Shown here: positions 1 through 39,607 of the stretch, piece by piece
How positions within the stretch are numbered: the stretch's first letter is position 1
Layout of the letters: each line of letters begins with the position of its first letter
Source: Escherichia coli
GTDB lineage: Bacteria > Pseudomonadota > Gammaproteobacteria > Enterobacterales > Enterobacteriaceae
Assembly: GCF_024502345.1 (NCBI RefSeq)
Contig: NZ_JALDNN010000001.1
Length of the DNA: 64,000 bases
Strand: one strand, 5' to 3'
Notes under the pieces: model-generated
What the model saw: only the letters and a program-made list of their open reading frames with translations
What the model was told of the DNA's origin: nothing
The model's database searches: none
Translations under genes and position numbers: made by a program

Positions 1-403
1 CTTTCACTGCGATATGACGCACAGAGATACGTTCACCATGCATTGCCGCTTTCGAACCAGTAAGCAGCGGATGCCACGCAGGTAAATCTTTACCTTCCGC
101 CAGCAAACGATAAGCGCAGGTCATTGGCAGCCATTCGAATGTTGGCAGATTTTCACGGGTTAATTTAATGCAGTCGGGTTCAAACTCGAAACGACGTTCG
201 TAGTTCCGACATTGACAGGTTTTAATATTGAGCTGGCGACAGGCGACGTTAGTGAAGTAGATTTCGTCGGTGTCTTCATCCATCAGTTTATGCAGGCAAC
301 ACTGACCGCAACCATCACACAACGACTCCCATTCCGCATCGCTCATTTCGTCCAGGGTTTTACTTTGCCAGAAAGGTACATCGCTCATCAGGTGTTCCGC
401 CAT
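1..403 (-). CDS. ycgN: UPF0260 protein YcgN, cut by the window edge (start codon at 401-403)
   Basis: Reverse-strand frame translates [15 protein letters not shown]... with CxxC motifs; lies downstream of ycgM as in K-12. Start codon choice is uncertain (second ATG at 386-388). Confidence 0.65.
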
Positions 404-479
404 TACGTTAAAACGCACCTTATAACCAGTCTGGCACAGCGATGCAAGTTTTGCCGCCGCTTTCAGGCGGCAAAAAGTA

Positions 480-1139
480 TTACAAAACGCGAGTTGCCAA
501 AGAATGCCCATCGAAAGTGACTGTCAGCTCATCACCGCTTTGCAACGGGCCGACGCCATCAGGCGTGCCTGTCAACACAACGTCACCGGCCTTGAGGGTA
601 AAAAACTTGCTCATATAAGCGATCAGCGGAACGATTTTATGGATCATGTCCGCAGTCGTACCTTGCTGGCGTTGTTCGCCGTTTACGCTCAGGCCCAGCG
701 TTGTATTTTGCGGGTCGCCGGTAAATTCCGCCGCGGGAATAAACCCGGAAAGCGGACAAGAGTTATCAAACGCTTTAGCCTTTTCCCACGGCTGCCCGGC
801 TGTCTTCATTTTTCCCTGAACATCACGCAACGTCAGATCGAGCGCCACGCCGTAACCGGCAATGGCTTTGCGGACATGTTCTTCCGTAGCCTGACGCAGC
901 GTCGCGCCAATCAACACCGCCAGTTCGACTTCATGATGAACTGAACCGAAATCGGATGGGATCGCCAATGGCTGCCGCAGATCGCACAGTGCCGTTTCTG
1001 GTTTAATAAACAGCACTGGCTCTTCGGGCACTGCGCTGCCCATCTCTTTAATATGTTTGGCATAGTTACTGCCAACACAGACTACTTTACTCACCGGATA
1101 ATCCAGCAGCGCACCTTGCCAGTTGTGATGTTGATACAT
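480..1139 (-). CDS. ycgM: Fumarylacetoacetate hydrolase family protein YcgM
   Basis: 219-aa ORF in the track; K-12 synteny with ycgL/ycgN. Confidence 0.9.
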
Positions 1140-1210
1140 AACGTTCCCCTCACCTTATCGTGGATATGAAAACCCGCGCCGACAAAGATAATGCCACCGC
1201 CGGATATCGG

Positions 1211-1537
1211 TTATTTGTTAGTGTCGTCTGTTTTCTGCCCCATGACGGAAAGATGTTGCTTCAGCAAATCTTCGGGTGGTGGCGGTAACTGCAAATAGTA
1301 ACCTTGCTCGGTTAATGCCTGTTTAACCTTTTCAATATCGGCATTGACCAGTTTCTTCCGCCCATCCAGCGGCAGAATCATCGCTAATTGAGGCTGACCA
1401 AAACCTTTCATCAGTTCCTCAGGAACACGAGAAAAATCGTCTTTTTTTTCGACATATAAATAGGTCTGGTCACGCTTGCTGCTTCGATAAATCACACAAA
1501 ACATACTTTTACTCTTTAAGATGCCAGGTTTTGGCAT
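1211..1537 (-). CDS. ycgL: YcgL domain protein
   Basis: 108-aa ORF; synteny next to minC-side genes. Confidence 0.85.
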
Positions 1538-1745
1538 AAGCTAACATCAATGAAACCCGCGCCACAAGCCAGCCAGCTGTAGATTTCTGCGGTTTGTTGA
1601 GTCCATGCCCCTTTATAAGTAATCCCCCCGGCAAAAAATGCCGCGCCGGGATTTTACCGAACGCAGAAAAGCCACTGGAATTCTCCCGTAAGGGATTGTT
1701 ATATTATAACAGTTCATCGTACTCATTCTGAACAGGAGACTACCA

Positions 1746-2147
1746 ATGAAAATCAAGAGCATCAGTAAGGCTGTATTGCTGCTTGCACTGCTAACCTCCA
1801 CGAGCTTTGCTGCGGGTAAGAATGTCAATGTTGAGTTCAGCAAAGGCCATAGCAGCGCTCAGTACTCCGGCGAAATAAAGGGATACGATTACGATACATA
1901 TACCTTCTATGCCAAAAAAGGTCAGAAAGTGCATGTGAGTATCTCTAATGAAGGCGCTGATACTTACCTCTTCGGGCCAGGAATCGATGATTCTGTTGAT
2001 TTATCCAGATATTCCCCTGAACTCGATAGTCACGGACAATACTCACTCCCTGCTTCTGGCAAATATGAGCTGCGAGTGCTGCAAACCCGAAACGACGCCC
2101 GTAAAAACAAAACTAAAAAATATAACGTCGATATTCAAATTAAGTAA
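1746..2147 (+). CDS. pliG: Periplasmic inhibitor of g-type lysozyme PliG (YcgK)
   Basis: 133-aa ORF with an N-terminal signal peptide (MKIKSISKAVLLLALLTSTSFA); synteny. Confidence 0.85.
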   Translation: MKIKSISKAVLLLALLTSTSFAAGKNVNVEFSKGHSSAQYSGEIKGYDYDTYTFYAKKGQKVHVSISNEGADTYLFGPGIDDSVDLSRYSPELDSHGQYSLPASGKYELRVLQTRNDARKNKTKKYNVDIQIK

Positions 2148-2266
2148 ATGTCAACCGACGGGGACTCTCCCCGTCATAAACGTTAACGCCCCACTCCTCT
2201 CTGTCGCTCAAGAGGTTAATGACGAATAGCAGACAATGCCGAATAGAACATAATGTAAACAAGGCA

Positions 2267-2635
2267 TCACTCACGACACATAAATAACATCTTTGTGGTG
2301 GTTTGATTGATTTTTCCACTCCGCTTACCATCCACACCAAAATAACGATCATCACGACATAATTTTTCTTTAACATCGCAAAATACACCGTTAGCGAATG
2401 TAAATTCGCTGGGATCGTAGCCTTGTAATGATTGTAAGTTTTCAGCGGCTTTTTCGCCGAGATATTTCCTTGTTAACTCTGGGGAAATGCCATCTGAGTT
2501 CACACAAATATACGGGTCGCAAACAACGCCGCACGCCGGAGATTGAAGTCCGCCAGCGTCATTTCCAGACGCCATTGATGAGAACATCATCCCCACACCT
2601 GACAATCCGATATAAAAAATACGCATCATATTCAT
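2267..2635 (-). CDS. ycgJ: Uncharacterised protein YcgJ
   Basis: 122-aa ORF; position between pliG and minC as in K-12. Confidence 0.8.
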   Translation of the reverse strand: MNMMRIFYIGLSGVGMMFSSMASGNDAGGLQSPACGVVCDPYICVNSDGISPELTRKYLGEKAAENLQSLQGYDPSEFTFANGVFCDVKEKLCRDDRYFGVDGKRSGKINQTTTKMLFMCRE

Positions 2636-3154
2636 AGCACATCCTGATAATCCAACCGTACAACACTTATGCTCATTTCATCATCAATCCGTAATCAAAA
2701 CCGCTGACCTGGACGAGTTACGATGACCTGACAGAAGTATCAGACGTCTTCTGCGGTTTCTATGATAGAGCAATTCTGTGGCGGATATTAAGATAACGGG
2801 TATCTGTTCTTTAATGATGCCGCAAAAAATGGAAAGTTAAGAAAGCCTGGCGTGGTGAAAAAATACACTTGCCTCAATACTGGATATTTAAACAGGTCTG
2901 GAGATGCTGTCACGATTAGGGTGCGGAAAAAGGAAGCGTAAATAAGAACAATCAAAAGTACGACGGCAATGGGTTGATTGACAAGGGTATTTTTTAAGCT
3001 ATGAATCAGCGCCATTTATCACTGAATAGACTTTTACTCTGAATAAATGGGAGGGTGACTTGCCTCAATATAATCCAGACTATAACATGCCTTATAGTCT
3101 TCGGAACATCATCGCGCGCTGGCGATGATTAATAGCTAATTGAGTAAGGCCAGG

Positions 3155-3850
3155 ATGTCAAACACGCCAATCGAGCTTAAAGGCAGTAGCTTCACTTTAT
3201 CTGTGGTTCATCTGCATGAGGCAGAACCTAAGGTTATCCATCAGGCGCTGGAAGACAAAATCGCTCAGGCCCCCGCATTTTTAAAACATGCCCCCGTTGT
3301 ACTCAACGTCAGTGCACTGGAAGACCCGGTAAACTGGTCAGCGATGCATAAGGCGGTTTCGGCAACCGGTTTGCGGGTTATTGGCGTAAGTGGCTGCAAA
3401 GATGCGCAACTTAAAGCCGAAATTGAAAAAATGGGGCTGCCTATCCTGACGGAAGGAAAGGAAAAAGCGCCACGTCCAGCTCCCGCACCGCAGGCTCCAG
3501 CGCAAAATACAACGCCGGTCACAAAAACGCGTTTAATAGATACCCCGGTGCGTTCCGGTCAGCGTATTTATGCTCCACAATGTGATCTGATTGTTACAAG
3601 CCACGTTAGCGCTGGGGCCGAATTGATTGCCGATGGTAACATTCATGTCTATGGCATGATGCGCGGTCGTGCGCTGGCAGGGGCAAGTGGTGACCGGGAA
3701 ACGCAAATATTTTGTACGAACCTGATGGCGGAATTGGTGTCCATCGCAGGTGAATACTGGCTGAGTGATCAAATCCCAGCAGAATTTTATGGCAAAGCGG
3801 CGCGACTGCAGTTAGTCGAAAACACTTTGACCGTTCAACCGTTAAATTGA
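3155..3850 (+). CDS. minC: Septum site-determining protein MinC
   Basis: ATG at 3155 gives [21 protein letters not shown]..., 231 aa; the track ORF begins 5 codons upstream at a TTG. Confidence 0.95.
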
Positions 3851-4956: not shown

Positions 4957-4982
4957 TCCCGCTGTAAAAGCGCATTTATCTT

Positions 4983-5014
4983 CAAGGCAGAGTTATCTCT
5001 GCCTTGAGTTTTTC
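4983..5014 (+). terminator. Intrinsic terminator downstream of minE
   Basis: Stem caaggcaga/tctgccttg with loop gttatc, followed by agtttttc. Confidence 0.7.
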
Positions 5015-5103
5015 ATCCCTCTCATCCACGTTGTGGTAAAGCGGCGAGTATTCTTGCTGATACTCCTCATTGCTATTTCCACCTCCCCCTTTACACCTTA
5101 AGG

Positions 5104-6160
5104 GGCTTTGTTGAATAAATCGAACTTTTGCTGAGTTGAAGGATCAGATCACGTATCTTCCCGACAACGCAGACCGTTCCGTGGCAAAGCAAAAGTTCAA
5201 AATCACCAACTGGCCCACCTACAATAAAGCCCTCATCAACCGTGGCTCCATAACTTTCTGGCTGGATGATGAAGCTATTCAGGCCTGGTATGAGTCAGCA
5301 ACACCTTCTTCACGAGGCAGACCTCAGCGCTATTCTGACCTTGCCATCACGACTGTGCTGGTCATTAAACGCGTATTCAGGCTGACCCTGCGCGCTGCGC
5401 AGGGCTTTATTGATTCCATTTTTTCTCTGATGAACGTTCCGCTACGCTGCCCGGATTACAGCTGTGTCAGCAGGCGGGCAAAGTCGGTTAATGTCAGTTT
5501 CAAAACGCCCACCCGGGGTGAAATCGCACACCTGGTAATTGATTCCACCGGGCTGAAGGTCTTCGGTGAAGGCGAGTGGAAAGTCAAAAAGCATGGCCAG
5601 GAACGCCGCCGTATCTGGCGTAAGCTGCATCTCGCCGTTGACAGTAAAACACATGAAATCATCTGCGCTGACCTGTCGCTGAACAACGTTACGGACTCAG
5701 AGGCCTTCCCCGGGTTAATCCGGCAAACCCACCGGAAAATCAGGTCAGCCGCCGCCGATGGCGCTTACGATACCCGGCTATGTCACGATGAACTGCGGCG
5801 TAAGAAAATCAGCGCGCTTATCCCTCCCCGAAAAGGTGCGGGTTACTGGCCCGGTGAATATGCAGACCGTAACCGTGCAGTGGCTAATCAGCGAATGACC
5901 GGGAGTAATGCGCGGTGGAAATGGACAACAGATTACAACCGTCGCTCGATAGCGGAAACGGCGATGTACCGGGTAAAACAGCTGTTCGGGGGTTCACTGA
6001 CACTGCGTGACTACGATGGTCAGGTTGCAGAGGCTATGGCCCTGGTACGAGCGCTGAACAAAATGACGAAAGCAGGTATGCCTGAAAGCGTGCGTATTGC
6101 CTGAAAACACAACCCGCTACGGGGGAGACTTACCCGAAATCTGATTTATTCAACAAAGCC
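5104..6160 (+). mobile_element. IS903-group insertion sequence (IS5 family), copy 1, 1057 bp, no target-site duplication
   Basis: Perfect 18-bp terminal inverted repeats GGCTTTGTTGAATAAATC (5104-5121 and 6143-6160); length 1057 bp; transposase ORF. Flanking 9-mers differ (ACCTTAAGG vs ATCGTGCAC). Confidence 0.93.
5181..6104 (+). CDS. IS903-type transposase (307 aa from GTG at 5181; the track ORF starts at TTG 5136)
   Basis: Translation VAKQKFKITNWPTYNKALINRGSITFWLDDEAIQAWYESATPSSRGRPQRYSDL... matches the IS903/IS102 transposase family from memory. Confidence 0.9.
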   Translation: MAKQKFKITNWPTYNKALINRGSITFWLDDEAIQAWYESATPSSRGRPQRYSDLAITTVLVIKRVFRLTLRAAQGFIDSIFSLMNVPLRCPDYSCVSRRAKSVNVSFKTPTRGEIAHLVIDSTGLKVFGEGEWKVKKHGQERRRIWRKLHLAVDSKTHEIICADLSLNNVTDSEAFPGLIRQTHRKIRSAAADGAYDTRLCHDELRRKKISALIPPRKGAGYWPGEYADRNRAVANQRMTGSNARWKWTTDYNRRSIAETAMYRVKQLFGGSLTLRDYDGQVAEAMALVRALNKMTKAGMPESVRIA

Positions 6161-6208
6161 ATCGTGCACACTACGCAGTCTCACAACTAACAAGAGGTTA
6201 TTATCCTG

Positions 6209-6613
6209 ATGGATCAGGTCGTTGTTTTTCAAAAGATGTTTGAGCAAGTGAGAAAAGAGCAAAACTTCTCCTGGTTTTATTCAGAATTAAAACATCACCG
6301 TATTGCACATTACATTTATTATCTGGCTACGGATAACATCAGAATTATTACTCACGATGACACGGTTTTGTTATTAAGAGGAACCAGGAACCTGTTAAAA
6401 GTTAGTACGACCAAGAACCCTGCTAAAATAAAAGAGGCCGCATTGCTTCATATTTGCGGAAAATCTACATTTCGGGAATACTGTTCAACACTGGCAGACG
6501 CGGGCGTTTTCCGTTGGGTTACTGATGTTAATCATAACAAACGCAGTTACTACGCCATTGATAATACGCTTTTATATATTGAAGATGTAGAAAATAATAA
6601 ACCATTAATCTAG
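6209..6613 (+). CDS. ycgX: DUF1398 family protein, YcgX-like
   Basis: 134-aa ORF immediately upstream of iraM, the K-12 position of ycgX. The protein sequence itself was not matched from memory. Confidence 0.6.
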   Translation: MDQVVVFQKMFEQVRKEQNFSWFYSELKHHRIAHYIYYLATDNIRIITHDDTVLLLRGTRNLLKVSTTKNPAKIKEAALLHICGKSTFREYCSTLADAGVFRWVTDVNHNKRSYYAIDNTLLYIEDVENNKPLI

Positions 6614-6828
6614 CTAAAGTTGGATGCTTAAGAAATGCTTCATAATTCAGTATGGCATTAGCATAATGGGAATAAAAGTACAGAGACTATCCCTATGGAT
6701 GATAAATACTGTCCTTTTATTGCTACCCATAAATAATCACCTGGCCAATACTATCAAATTGATATTTGAAATGTGATCACTTGACTTTCTATACGTTATT
6801 TCATAACGTTTAATATATTTATAAAAAC

Positions 6829-6851
6829 AACGGGCGTGCCATACGCCCGTT
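6829..6851. terminator. Hairpin aacgggcgt-gccat-acgcccgtt in the ycgX-iraM spacer; likely terminator
   Basis: Perfect 9-bp stem; the reverse strand is followed by a T-rich run. About 85% similar over roughly 50 bp to the hairpin at 7689-7711. Confidence 0.5.
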
Positions 6852-7308
6852 TCAATACTTAACGCACATGTGTTTTGGTTTAGTCATCATCCAGTTATAT
6901 GTATTTTAGCCAGGAACAGGTTAAACCTTTCCTATATAACTCAAAAATTGAAACCTTATTCTCATGTCATGCTTATATTCATTATTATCGTTATATAAAA
7001 AGGCAACCATAATGTTTAGCAAATTGGCACAAAGTAGCATAAAGGCTATGTTTTAATTACAGGATGGTCAGTCATTTGAATGTATAACATTATAGCTAAA
7101 CAAATCTAAAACGAAGTGAATAATTTATTGTTTTCACTAAATCTCATTTTGTTTAACATCCATTGAGATTCCTTGCTTTAAATTTTGTTTTATATAAGCA
7201 ATTGTTTTAATTAATTTATTTTTTGAAGGGGTAATATACTCATATGCAAAATAAAGAAATGAACATCCAAATGAACTATATTAAATACCGTGGGATAAGA
7301 CATAACAA

Positions 7309-7632
7309 ATGAAGTGGGTAGTAATTGACACGGTAATTCAACCTACATGCGGCATATCTTTTTCAGCCATATGGGGTGATATGAAAATGATTATCTGGTA
7401 TCAATCTACTATATTTCTTCCTCCTGGAAGTATATTTACACTGGTTAAGCCTGGTATTATCCTTAAGGATAAAGAATATCCTATAACTATTTATAACATT
7501 GCACCATTCAACAAGAATTTATGGAGTTTACTCAAAAGCAGTCAAGAGTGTCCTCCAGGAGAAAGCGAAATAACAAATAAATGTTTGCATAAGAGTTGTA
7601 TTATAAAAATATGCCCATATGGGCTCAAGTAA
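7309..7632 (+). CDS. iraM: Anti-adaptor protein IraM (stabilises RpoS against RssB)
   Basis: 107-aa [44 protein letters not shown]...; long AT-rich upstream region; adjacent to icd. Confidence 0.85.
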
Positions 7633-7734: not shown

Positions 7735-8985
7735 TTACATATTTTTGATGATCGCATCACCAAACTCTGAACATTTCAGCAGTTTAGCGCCTTCCATCAG
7801 ACGTTCGAAGTCATAGGTTACGGTCTTCGCATTGATTGCGCCTTCCATACCTTTAACAATCAGGTCTGCGGCTTCGGTCCAACCCATGTGGCGTAACATC
7901 ATCTCAGCAGAGAGAATAATAGAACCTGGGTTAACTTTGTCCTGACCGGCATATTTCGGCGCAGTACCGTGGGTGGCTTCAAACAGGGCGCATTCGTCAC
8001 CGATGTTTGCACCAGGGGCGATACCGATACCGCCAACCTGCGCTGCCAGGGCGTCAGAAATGTAGTCACCGTTCAGGTTCATACAGGCGATAACATCATA
8101 TTCAGCCGGACGCAGCAGGATCTGTTGCAGGAATGCATCAGCAATCACGTCTTTAATGACGATCTCTTTGCCGGTATTCGGGTTTTTAACTTTCAGCCAC
8201 GGGCCGCCGTCGATCAGTTCACCGCCAAATTCTTCACGCGCCAGCTGGTAGCCCCAGTCTTTAAACGCGCCTTCGGTGAACTTCATGATGTTGCCTTTGT
8301 GCACCAGGGTCACAGAGTCACGATCGTTAGCAATTGCGTATTCGATCGCTGCACGAACCAGACGTTTGGTGCCTTCTTCAGAACACGGCTTAATACCGAT
8401 ACCGCAATGTTCCGGGAAGCGAATTTTCTTCACGCCCATCTCTTCACGCAGGAATTTAATCACTTTCTCGGCGTCGGCAGAGTCAGCTTTCCATTCGATA
8501 CCCGCATAAATGTCTTCCGAGTTTTCACGGAAGATAACCATATCGGTCAGTTCAGGGTGTTTAACCGGGCTTGGAGTGCCCTGATAGTAACGTACCGGAC
8601 GCAGGCAGATGTAGAGATCCAGTTCCTGGCGCAGGGCAACGTTCAGAGAGCGAATACCGCCACCAACCGGAGTGGTCAGCGGGCCTTTAATGGCAACGCG
8701 ATATTCACGAATCAGATCAAGGGTTTCAGCAGGCAGCCAGACATCCTGACCATAAACCTGTGTGGATTTTTCACCGGTGTAAATTTCCATCCAGGAGATT
8801 TTACGCTCGCCTTTATAGGCTTTCTCGACTGCAGCGTCGACCACTTTCAGCATGGCTGGGGTTACATCTACACCGATTCCATCACCTTCAATGTAAGGGA
8901 TAATCGGATTTTCAGGAACGTTGAGTTTGCCGTTTTGCAGGGTGATCTTCTTGCCTTGTGCCGGAACAACTACTTTACTTTCCAT
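7735..8985 (-). CDS. icd: Isocitrate dehydrogenase (NADP)
   Basis: 416-aa [41 protein letters not shown]...; no prophage is attached to its 3' end. Confidence 0.97.
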
Positions 8986-22481: not shown

Positions 22482-22943
22482 ATGAGTCAGGACAGTAAAG
22501 TTTTCTTTCGTATATTCTTCGGTATCGGTCTGGTACTGATCCTCATTTCTGTTGTTATCTTTTATAACCAGTTCACCTATAGCAAAGACGCGATTCATAC
22601 CGAAGGCGTCATTGTTGATACCGTCTTGCACTCCAGTCATTCTCATCGCACGGGTAAAAATGGTTCGTGGTATCCCGTCGTTGCCTTTCGACCGACGCCA
22701 GATTACACGCTAATTTTCAATTCGAGTATTGGCAGCGATTTTTATGAAGACAGCGAAGGCGATAAAGTTAATGTTTATTATTCTCCCGGGCATCCTGAAA
22801 AGGCTGAGATAAATAACCCGTGGGTTAATTTTTTTAAATGGGGGTTTATCGGCATTATGGGCGTTATTTTTATCGCCGTCGGTTTATTAATCAGTATGCC
22901 CTCCTCTAAAAAATCACGCAGGAAACGGAAGTCCCGTCCATGA
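22482..22943 (+). CDS. ymfA: Inner membrane protein YmfA (DUF3592)
   Basis: 153-aa ORF with two hydrophobic segments; synteny after potD. Confidence 0.85.
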
Positions 22944-22981
22944 AAAAAATCATAATACTGCTCAGTTTACTGATACTTCTG

Positions 22982-22990
22982 CCTCTGACG
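22982..22990. repeat. Target-site duplication (left copy) of IS903 copy 2
   Basis: CCTCTGACG immediately 5' of the IS; identical 9-mer at 24048-24056. Confidence 0.9.
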
Positions 22991-24047
22991 GGCTTTGTTG
23001 AATAAATCGAACTTTTGCTGAGTTGAAGGATCAGATCACGTATCTTCCCGACAACGCAGACCGTTCCGTGGCAAAGCAAAAGTTCAAAATCACCAACTGG
23101 CCCACCTACAATAAAGCCCTCATCAACCGTGGCTCCATAACTTTCTGGCTGGATGATGAAGCTATTCAGGCCTGGTATGAGTCAGCAACACCTTCTTCAC
23201 GAGGCAGACCTCAGCGCTATTCTGACCTTGCCATCACGACTGTGCTGGTCATTAAACGCGTATTCAGGCTGACCCTGCGCGCTGCGCAGGGCTTTATTGA
23301 TTCCATTTTTTCTCTGATGAACGTTCCGCTACGCTGCCCGGATTACAGCTGTGTCAGCAGGCGGGCAAAGTCGGTTAATGTCAGTTTCAAAACGCCCACC
23401 CGGGGTGAAATCGCACACCTGGTAATTGATTCCACCGGGCTGAAGGTCTTCGGTGAAGGCGAGTGGAAAGTCAAAAAGCATGGCCAGGAACGCCGCCGTA
23501 TCTGGCGTAAGCTGCATCTCGCCGTTGACAGTAAAACACATGAAATCATCTGCGCTGACCTGTCGCTGAACAACGTTACGGACTCAGAGGCCTTCCCCGG
23601 GTTAATCCGGCAAACCCACCGGAAAATCAGGTCAGCCGCCGCCGATGGCGCTTACGATACCCGGCTATGTCACGATGAACTGCGGCGTAAGAAAATCAGC
23701 GCGCTTATCCCTCCCCGAAAAGGTGCGGGTTACTGGCCCGGTGAATATGCAGACCGTAACCGTGCAGTGGCTAATCAGCGAATGACCGGGAGTAATGCGC
23801 GGTGGAAATGGACAACAGATTACAACCGTCGCTCGATAGCGGAAACGGCGATGTACCGGGTAAAACAGCTGTTCGGGGGTTCACTGACACTGCGTGACTA
23901 CGATGGTCAGGTTGCAGAGGCTATGGCCCTGGTACGAGCGCTGAACAAAATGACGAAAGCAGGTATGCCTGAAAGCGTGCGTATTGCCTGAAAACACAAC
24001 CCGCTACGGGGGAGACTTACCCGAAATCTGATTTATTCAACAAAGCC
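22991..24047 (+). mobile_element. IS903-group insertion sequence, copy 2, 1057 bp, flanked by a 9-bp target-site duplication
   Basis: Same terminal repeats and encoded proteins as copy 1; direct orientation; perfect 9-bp duplication. Confidence 0.95.
23068..23991 (+). CDS. IS903-type transposase (307 aa from GTG; the track ORF starts at 23023)
   Basis: Identical to the transposase of copy 1. Confidence 0.9.
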   Translation: MAKQKFKITNWPTYNKALINRGSITFWLDDEAIQAWYESATPSSRGRPQRYSDLAITTVLVIKRVFRLTLRAAQGFIDSIFSLMNVPLRCPDYSCVSRRAKSVNVSFKTPTRGEIAHLVIDSTGLKVFGEGEWKVKKHGQERRRIWRKLHLAVDSKTHEIICADLSLNNVTDSEAFPGLIRQTHRKIRSAAADGAYDTRLCHDELRRKKISALIPPRKGAGYWPGEYADRNRAVANQRMTGSNARWKWTTDYNRRSIAETAMYRVKQLFGGSLTLRDYDGQVAEAMALVRALNKMTKAGMPESVRIA

Positions 24048-24056
24048 CCTCTGACG
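24048..24056. repeat. Target-site duplication (right copy) of IS903 copy 2
   Basis: CCTCTGACG immediately 3' of the IS. Confidence 0.9.
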
Positions 24057-24819
24057 GTAACCAGTAAGCCCTTAATCCCAATAATGAAGACACTTTTTAC
24101 GGATGTTACAGGTACTGTACCGGATGCTGAGGAGATTGCGCGGAAAGCGGAGCTTTTTCGTCAACAAACAGGGATTGCGCCGTTTATCGTGGTTGTACCT
24201 GGCGTTAATGAAGCAAGCTTCAGGCAAAATGGCAAAGCGATGCTGGCGCATGCGTCATCTTCATTGAGTGATGTAAAAGGAAGTGTTCTGTTACTTTTTA
24301 CTACACGCGAGCCACGGTTAATTATGATAACCAACGGCCATGTTGAAAGCAGCATGGACGATAAGCATCTCGGCCTTCTGGTAGAAAATCACACGCTGGC
24401 TTATTTACATGCGGATCTCTGGTATCAGGGAATCAATAATGCATTGGCTGTTTTACAAGCACAGATATTAAAACAACCGACGCCGCCACTGACATATTAT
24501 CCGCATCCCGGACAACAGCAGGAGAATGATCCTCCCGGCAGCACCACGACATTAGGCCTTTTTGCCTGGGCGGTTGCATTTATCGTCTTTACTGCATTTT
24601 TTAACTACACGACGCGCCTTAATTATGCATTAAAATTTGCAGTGGCGATGACTATTGCCAATATGGGCTATCAGGCTTTATGCCTGTATATCGATAATAG
24701 CTTTGCGATTACCAGAATATCGCCACTCTGGGCAGGGCTGATTGGTGTCTGTACGTTTATTGCCGCGTTGTTATTGACGAGTAAACGGTAAAAGAGATAG
24801 TAAAATGCGTGTGTATTAT

Positions 24820-24913
24820 GCCGGATGCGACGCGAACGCCTTATCCGGCCCACAAACCCGCAAATTCAATTAATTGCGTCCCCTTGTAGGCCTGATAAGC
24901 GTAGCGCATCAGG
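24820..24913. repeat. REP/BIME element between ycfZ and cobB
   Basis: gccggatgcgacgcgaacgccttatccggcc and inverted gtaggcctgataagcgtagcgcatcaggc. Confidence 0.75.
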
Positions 24914-24927
24914 CAATGCTTCCTGCT

Positions 24928-25749
24928 TTATAATCCCTTCAGCAACTTTTCAACAAATTCTGGCACCACCTGGCTTGCCGGGCCGTAATATTTCTCGGCA
25001 AATTCATTACCAACCTGACTCGGTTCAAGATTCAGTTCCACGGTGTGCGCGCCATGCAGTTTCGCTTCGTGAACAAACCCAGCCGCCGGATAAACATGCC
25101 CCGAAGTACCAATGGCAATGAAAATATCGGCCATCGACAACGCCATATAAATTTCATCCATGCCGAGTGGCATTTCGCCAAACCACACTACGTGCGGGCG
25201 CAAGGGTGCCGGGAACTGGCAGCAATGGCATTTATCTTCTGGGGTAACGTCTCCGGTCCAGTCGAGAACCTGACCACTTTGTGAACAACGAACTTTCAGC
25301 AGTTCCCCATGCATATGAATCACATTGGTATTACCTGCGCGTTCATGCAGGTTGTCTATATTCTGCGTCACCAGCAAAAAGCGATCGCCGAGAGCATCTT
25401 GCAGTTTAGCCAGCGCAAGATGCGCGGCGTTAGGCTGAATTTCTGGCTGCTGCAGCTGTCGACGACGGGCGTTATAAAACGCTTGCACCAGTTCAGGATC
25501 GCGATCGAAACCTTCCGGCGTTGCCACATCTTCAACCCGATGTTCTTCCCACAGGCCATCTGCGGCGCGAAAGGTACGAATACCTGATTCCGCAGAAATT
25601 CCTGCCCCTGTCAGTACGAGTACTCTTGGTTTTTCCATTGCTTCCGGCACCACTTTATCTCTGAAAAAAATACGCTGACGCAAACGCTCGCGCAGGCGGC
25701 GTTTATTTTTACGAAAACGACTTAACCGATGACCCCGACGCGACAGCAT
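24928..25749 (-). CDS. cobB: NAD-dependent protein deacylase CobB (sirtuin)
   Basis: 273-aa ORF with sirtuin motifs ([14 protein letters not shown], zinc CxxC pairs); a shorter isoform would start at MEKPRVLVL. Confidence 0.93.
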
Positions 25750-39476: not shown

Positions 39477-39607
39477 GTCCTGATAAGATGCGCAGCATCG
39501 CATCAGGCATTGATGCTCGACTGTCGGATGCGGCGTGGACGCCTTATCCGACTTACAGAATTCGGAGCGCATCAGGTACCGGCAAGGTAACCTGATGCGA
39601 CGAGGGC
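39477..39607. repeat. Cluster of REP elements between ndh and ycfP
   Basis: Several REP-like palindromes (cgtcctgataagatgcgcagcatcgcatcaggca; tcggatgcggcgtggacgccttatccga; gcgcatcaggtaccggcaaggtaacctgatgcga). Confidence 0.7.

Follow-up and report, generated by a model that had tools for sequence, protein, structure and literature searches.

The ycfZ gene in this Escherichia coli chromosome is interrupted by a complete copy of IS903B, a member of the IS903 group of the IS5 family, inserted between codons 17 and 18 and inside the N-terminal signal/anchor segment. The insertion almost certainly created a null or near-null allele, a loss of function that we infer from what the gene has been deprived of. 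The window, meaning the whole 64-kb stretch of DNA that was analysed, carries a second identical copy of the element at a deletion of about 11 kb. The interruption itself is an ordinary textbook insertion, and features of this kind are already known.

The layout of the locus was established from the sequence, the open reading frame list, domain searches and comparison with annotated genomes. The upstream gene, ymfA (22482..22943, + strand), is intact and encodes a DUF3592 inner-membrane protein of 153 aa, as indicated by the ORF list, by Pfam (PF12158, 30.2 bits against a cutoff of 25.3) and by the annotations of K-12 and of strain 88-3493. Its TGA stop codon (22941-22943) shares the bases ATGA with the ycfZ start codon, an ATG at 22940. 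The 5' fragment of ycfZ (22940..22990, + strand), recognized by its sequence and hydropathy, consists of the start codon and 16 further codons and includes the left 9-bp copy of the target-site duplication CCTCTGACG at 22982..22990. The IS903B element follows (22991..24047, + strand, 1057 bp), bounded on the right by the second 9-bp copy of CCTCTGACG at 24048..24056, and the 3' fragment of ycfZ (24057..24791, + strand) then contributes codons 18-261 and the stop, and encodes the C-terminal hydrophobic segments as well as the TPM domain. These 244 codons are read in the ycfZ frame from 24057 to a TAA at 24789-24791. The next gene, cobB (24928..25749, - strand), is convergent with ycfZ. An earlier note on this DNA had described the overlap of the ycfZ start with the ymfA stop, the 17 codons ahead of the IS and the roughly 244 in-frame codons behind it, and all of its coordinates proved correct when the sequence was read again.

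The region between ycfZ and cobB (24792..24927) contains REP-like palindromic units (GCCGGATGCGACGC…CTTATCCGGCC, GTAGGCCTGATAAGCG…), which account for about 12 extra BLAST places per genome. A scan of the whole window against Rfam returned nothing in or near the ycfZ/IS903B locus; its only matches were naRNA4 (39477..39553, - strand), SraB (58538..58706, - strand) and the rne 5' UTR element (60567..60903, + strand), all of which are expected for this region of the chromosome.

Relatives of IS903B within the IS903 group include IS903, IS102 and IS602. The element in ycfZ is identical at 1057 of 1057 positions to copies that RefSeq/PGAP annotates as 'IS5-like element IS903B family transposase', so the assignment to the IS903 group made in the earlier note is confirmed and can be narrowed to IS903B. 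Both ends (22991-23008 and 24030-24047) carry perfect 18-bp inverted repeats, GGCTTTGTTGAATAAATC, complementary at 18/18 positions. We take this sequence to be the canonical IS903 inverted repeat, a reading corroborated by the complete identity of the element to annotated IS903B copies. Such identical annotated copies are numerous on both chromosomes and plasmids of E. coli, and full-length IS903B was found in 1,535 of 5,426 complete E. coli genomes. The transposase gene (23023..23991, + strand), identified from the ORF list, Pfam and NCBIfam, lies in the same orientation as ycfZ and forms a single uninterrupted ORF of 322 aa from a TTG at 23023 (the 969-bp PGAP model), or of 307 aa from an alternative GTG start at 23068 (the 924-bp PGAP model). 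Its product matches the Pfam DDE domains DDE_Tnp_1_5 (PF13737, 137 bits) and DDE_Tnp_1 (PF01609, 115 bits) as well as the IS5-family transposase equivalog NF033579 (357 bits, cutoff 140). The intact ORF and ends, together with the presence of two identical copies in 64 kb, suggest that the copy in ycfZ may be active in transposition. IS903 has been described as an element of 1057 bp in the IS903 group of the IS5 family that generates a 9-bp target-site duplication (PMC12670165).

The sequence CCTCTGACG is repeated exactly at 22982-22990 and 24048-24056, on both sides of the IS, which bears out the perfect 9-bp duplication reported earlier; the + strand of the 64-kb window contains no further copy, and a 9/9 match at two fixed positions would arise by chance with a probability of about 4e-6. 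The direct repeat can also be read as 10 bp, CCTCTGACGG, because the IS opens with a G and the duplication is likewise followed by one. The symmetry of the inverted repeats and the canonical length of 1057 bp nonetheless set the duplication at 9 bp. When 22991..24056 was removed in silico, a continuous ORF of 786 bp and 261 aa was restored, as the earlier note had anticipated. The excised gene matches 786 of 786 bases of the uninterrupted gene in E. coli strain 88-3493, and the restored protein is 100% identical to the product of that gene (WP_001612824.1, 'TPM domain-containing protein'). In 88-3493 this ycfZ also lies between ymfA and cobB and holds a single CCTCTGACG at the empty site. This empty-site match is decisive evidence for a simple insertion, and the earlier description of the event as clean and simple therefore stands. 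In 88-3493 (1..1021 of the locus) and in one Logan assembly (1..404), a phage integrase gene was observed directly upstream of potC, where potA and potB would be expected, which suggests that a prophage or island has inserted into the pot operon of these two.

The second IS903B copy (5104..6160, + strand) is identical to the ycfZ copy at 1057/1057 positions and has the same orientation. No target-site duplication surrounds it, its flanks being ACCTTAAGG and ATCGTGCAC. The left flank is the 147 bp downstream of minE (4957..5103) and the right flank the 48 bp upstream of ycgX (6161..6208); between these two points the element replaces 10,976 bp of the K-12 sequence, comprising bluR, bluF, ycgZ, ymgA, ariR, ymgC, pdeG, ymgF, ycgH, ymgD, ymgG, ymgI, ymgJ and ycgI. 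IS903 is known to produce adjacent deletions (PMC12670165), and the arrangement probably reflects either such an event or recombination of one IS copy with another. Independent deletions associated with IS903B or IS1A occur in the minE-ycgX interval of other strains. The junctions of the second copy are not shared with HH194M or PCP06173, in which IS903B occupies other sites of the interval (bluF, ycgH/bluR). With the deletion the BluRF/YcgZ-YmgAB biofilm-regulatory module is lost, arguably a greater consequence than that of the hit in ycfZ. With two identical copies in the window, one of them at a deletion of about 11 kb, IS903B appears to have been reshaping this chromosome recently. Further along, icd (7735..8985) is intact, the e14 prophage, which breaks up this region in K-12, is absent, and ycgX and iraM (6209..7632) directly adjoin icd.

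Two identical copies in the same orientation, 17.9 kb apart, would also fit a composite transposon or a larger rearrangement in which the IS in ycfZ is one arm and the 16.8 kb between 5104..6160 and 22991..24047 are mobile as a unit, and elements of the IS903 group do form composite transposons (PMC12670165). We nevertheless assign this reading next to no probability. The 9-bp duplication brackets the single copy in ycfZ, whereas the outer flanks of the supposed unit, ACCTTAAGG and CCTCTGACG, differ; gene order follows that of K-12 both within the interval (icd … potABCD-ymfA) and outside it; and removal of the ycfZ copy alone restores the native gene exactly. A composite IS903 transposon is thus effectively refuted by the empty-site match, by the absence of a duplication at the outer ends and by an internal segment that is not foreign.

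The identity of the interrupted gene as ycfZ, proposed in the earlier note, is borne out by synteny and by comparison of the restored protein with K-12 YcfZ. The gene order potD-ymfA-ycfZ, convergent with cobB, is the same in the window and in K-12, and the two proteins are identical at 233 of 262 positions (89%) over their full length (E = 2e-166), with a one-codon gap between the 262 aa of K-12 YcfZ and the 261 aa of the restored allele. A TPM domain (PF04536) was detected at residues 41-151 of the restored protein (27.5 bits, cutoff 22.1). Searches of YcfZ returned no NCBIfam model and no match to PDB sequences at E <= 1, and neither YcfZ nor YmfA matched a PADLOC defence-system model, so a role as a known defence module is unsupported. 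Mentions of ycfZ in the literature are incidental only, namely a mutation in phage-resistant APEC mutants and a hit in a CRISPRi screen, neither of them with a mechanism.

Translation from the ycfZ start codon reads four codons into the IS (…PLTGFVE) and ends at a stop at 23003-23005, for a product of 21 aa; in the restored protein, hydropathy shows that residues 1-21, past the initial MKK, are strongly hydrophobic. On the other side, a stop at 23970-23972 interrupts the ycfZ frame, and no in-frame ATG, GTG or TTG follows it until the ATG at 24084, so the sole possible residual product is the 235-aa protein of the ORF 24084..24791 (+ strand), which lacks the signal/anchor segment. The earlier note had concluded that the remainder could be expressed only from this ATG and without its signal peptide, and with the frame closed upstream and no other start available, this conclusion holds.

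The insertion would not be fully inactivating if read-through allowed this 235-aa fragment to be made from the ATG at 24084, anchored by its C terminus and partly active, and such residual function seems to us very improbable. Its ORF is uninterrupted, and both the complete TPM domain and the C-terminal hydrophobic stretches are preserved in it. The transposase gene runs in the direction of ycfZ, and the stretch from its stop at 23991 to the ATG at 24084 showed no terminator-like hairpin, so read-through RNA into the 3' fragment is possible, whether it starts in the IS or in the pot-ymfA operon. However, the ATG at 24084 is essentially devoid of a Shine-Dalgarno sequence, matching AGGAGG at 1/6 positions as opposed to 4-5/6 at the ycfZ and ymfA starts, and the ATGA overlap no longer couples translation of the fragment to that of ymfA. 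No promoter-like site was found upstream or elsewhere on the + strand from 23112 to 24774 by a crude consensus scan, which a weak outward promoter could escape. The export/anchor segment is gone as well, and the TPM domain would consequently probably remain on the wrong side of the membrane. Correctly exported protein from the 3' fragment is very unlikely. The loss of the signal segment, the Shine-Dalgarno sequence and the promoter therefore supports, as a matter of inference, the earlier claim that ycfZ is inactivated.

This null or near-null allele is best explained, with high confidence, by a simple transposition. A copy of IS903B entered ycfZ between codons 17 and 18, its DDE transposase making the usual staggered cut, the repair of which yielded the 9-bp duplication. 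The 5' part is left with nothing beyond the 21-aa hydrophobic peptide, and the 3' part, to which the C-terminal membrane segments and the TPM domain belong, is severed from its promoter, from its translational coupling to ymfA and from its export signal. As ycfZ ends its transcription unit and the convergent cobB comes next, no polar effect downstream is expected, and ymfA is left intact.

None of the 5,426 complete E. coli genomes carries the ycfZ::IS903B insertion. The closest of them over the neighbouring 20 kb reaches 99.2% identity only, and the source lineage is therefore not represented in the complete-genome collection. The right IS-ycfZ junction was found in two ENA metagenome contigs (ERZ19695678 and ERZ19692831), both of which begin inside IS903B and contain 139 nt of the IS end, the duplication and ycfZ with 0 mismatches. 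The two contigs differ from the window at 7-8 positions in about 2,000-2,300 bp and at 3 positions in about 1,500-1,600 bp, respectively, contig-wide and BLAST-aligned counts varying slightly. The lineage with the insertion is thus present in environmental or host samples, where it has diversified slightly. A search of JGI metagenome contigs with a 30-mer across the left junction gave 0 matches.

The absence from complete genomes, along with the multicopy nature of IS903B here (at least two copies in 64 kb), would also fit an assembly artefact in which a repeat-induced misjoin placed an IS copy in ycfZ, although the chance of this is in our view very small. An exact 9-bp duplication at both junctions, matching the length that IS903 makes, would not result from a misjoin, and the two ENA metagenome samples yielded the same right junction in independent assemblies, which argues that the allele exists in nature. 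This real insertion is probably also recent, since the two IS copies in the window are 100% identical and the insertion is missing from every complete genome. Because it is absent from the 5,426 complete genomes and present in two metagenome assemblies, the junction can be used as a lineage marker.

The interrupted allele is itself uncommon. Compared with K-12, the restored ycfZ shows 80-94% identity per 150-bp bin, as against 98-100% for potD, ymfA, cobB and nagK, and its dS is 0.376 as against 0.03-0.08 for the neighbouring genes. The dN/dS of 0.14 indicates that ycfZ was a live gene under purifying selection before the IS struck. Only 17 complete genomes carry an allele of the same class (>=99% identity), and most E. 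coli genomes match the window's ycfZ at only 80-90%. On these comparisons ycfZ appears to be a sharply bounded island of ancient divergence, for which import of the allele and balancing selection are candidate causes.

The gene is also lost elsewhere in the species. By megablast and sensitive blastn, ycfZ was found in 4,848 of the 5,426 complete genomes; about 11% lack the ymfA-ycfZ pair, and in those sampled potD abuts cobB. This arrangement was verified in O145 strain RM8988-C1, where potD directly adjoins cobB with neither ymfA nor ycfZ present; given its absence from that strain and about 590 other complete genomes, the pair behaves as an accessory module. In CUWW06 (583..2603 of the locus), which has the same allele class (99.6%), ycfZ is split by IS1B and ymfA is annotated with an internal stop, so that both genes are decaying. 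Insertions of IS1 are present in the ycfZ genes of E138 and 600055, and of ISKpn26 in that of G47-1. Two Logan assemblies (ERR4562614 and SRR21930860) have the same ycfZ allele as the window with an empty IS site, and in both a run of seven A residues after the ATG is shortened to six (2924..2935 of the loci), which shifts the frame at codon 4 (MKKS followed by a stop); this could be an independent real knockout or a homopolymer sequencing error. The absence of the pair from about 11% of genomes and the IS1, ISKpn26 and frameshift lesions indicate that ycfZ is clearly dispensable. An enrichment of lesions in this allele class was considered and set aside, as the counts among complete genomes (1 of about 17 versus roughly 20-28 of about 4,830 elsewhere) are too few to claim one.

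The loss of ycfZ could conceivably have been selected rather than neutral, if the gene encodes an envelope protein caught between opposing selective pressures, such as one that a phage or toxin exploits. The dS of 0.38 against 0.03-0.08, the low dN/dS, the absence of the pair from about 11% of genomes and the independent hits by IS903B, IS1B and a homopolymer frameshift in one rare allele class form a pattern of this kind, yet we regard selection for the loss as unlikely. Were it true, the IS903B allele of the window and of the two metagenomes would be an adaptive knockout. For annotation, the gene is best entered in this genome as a pseudogene, ycfZ::IS903B, and the label of functional TPM protein should be withheld from the 235-aa ORF.

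Set beside known systems, the element shows no difference from IS903B in length, in its 18-bp inverted repeats, in its 9-bp duplication or in its single DDE ORF. The site between codons 17 and 18 of ycfZ, on the other hand, is not represented for IS903B among the 5,426 complete E. coli genomes. The other natural lesions of ycfZ strike the same gene with the same consequence, but they involve different elements and positions and are independent events. The closest reference, K-12 YcfZ (b1121), a TPM-domain inner-membrane protein, shares its synteny, its domain and 89% of its residues with the allele described here, which differs in being deeply diverged, in having 261 rather than 262 aa and in being interrupted by an IS.
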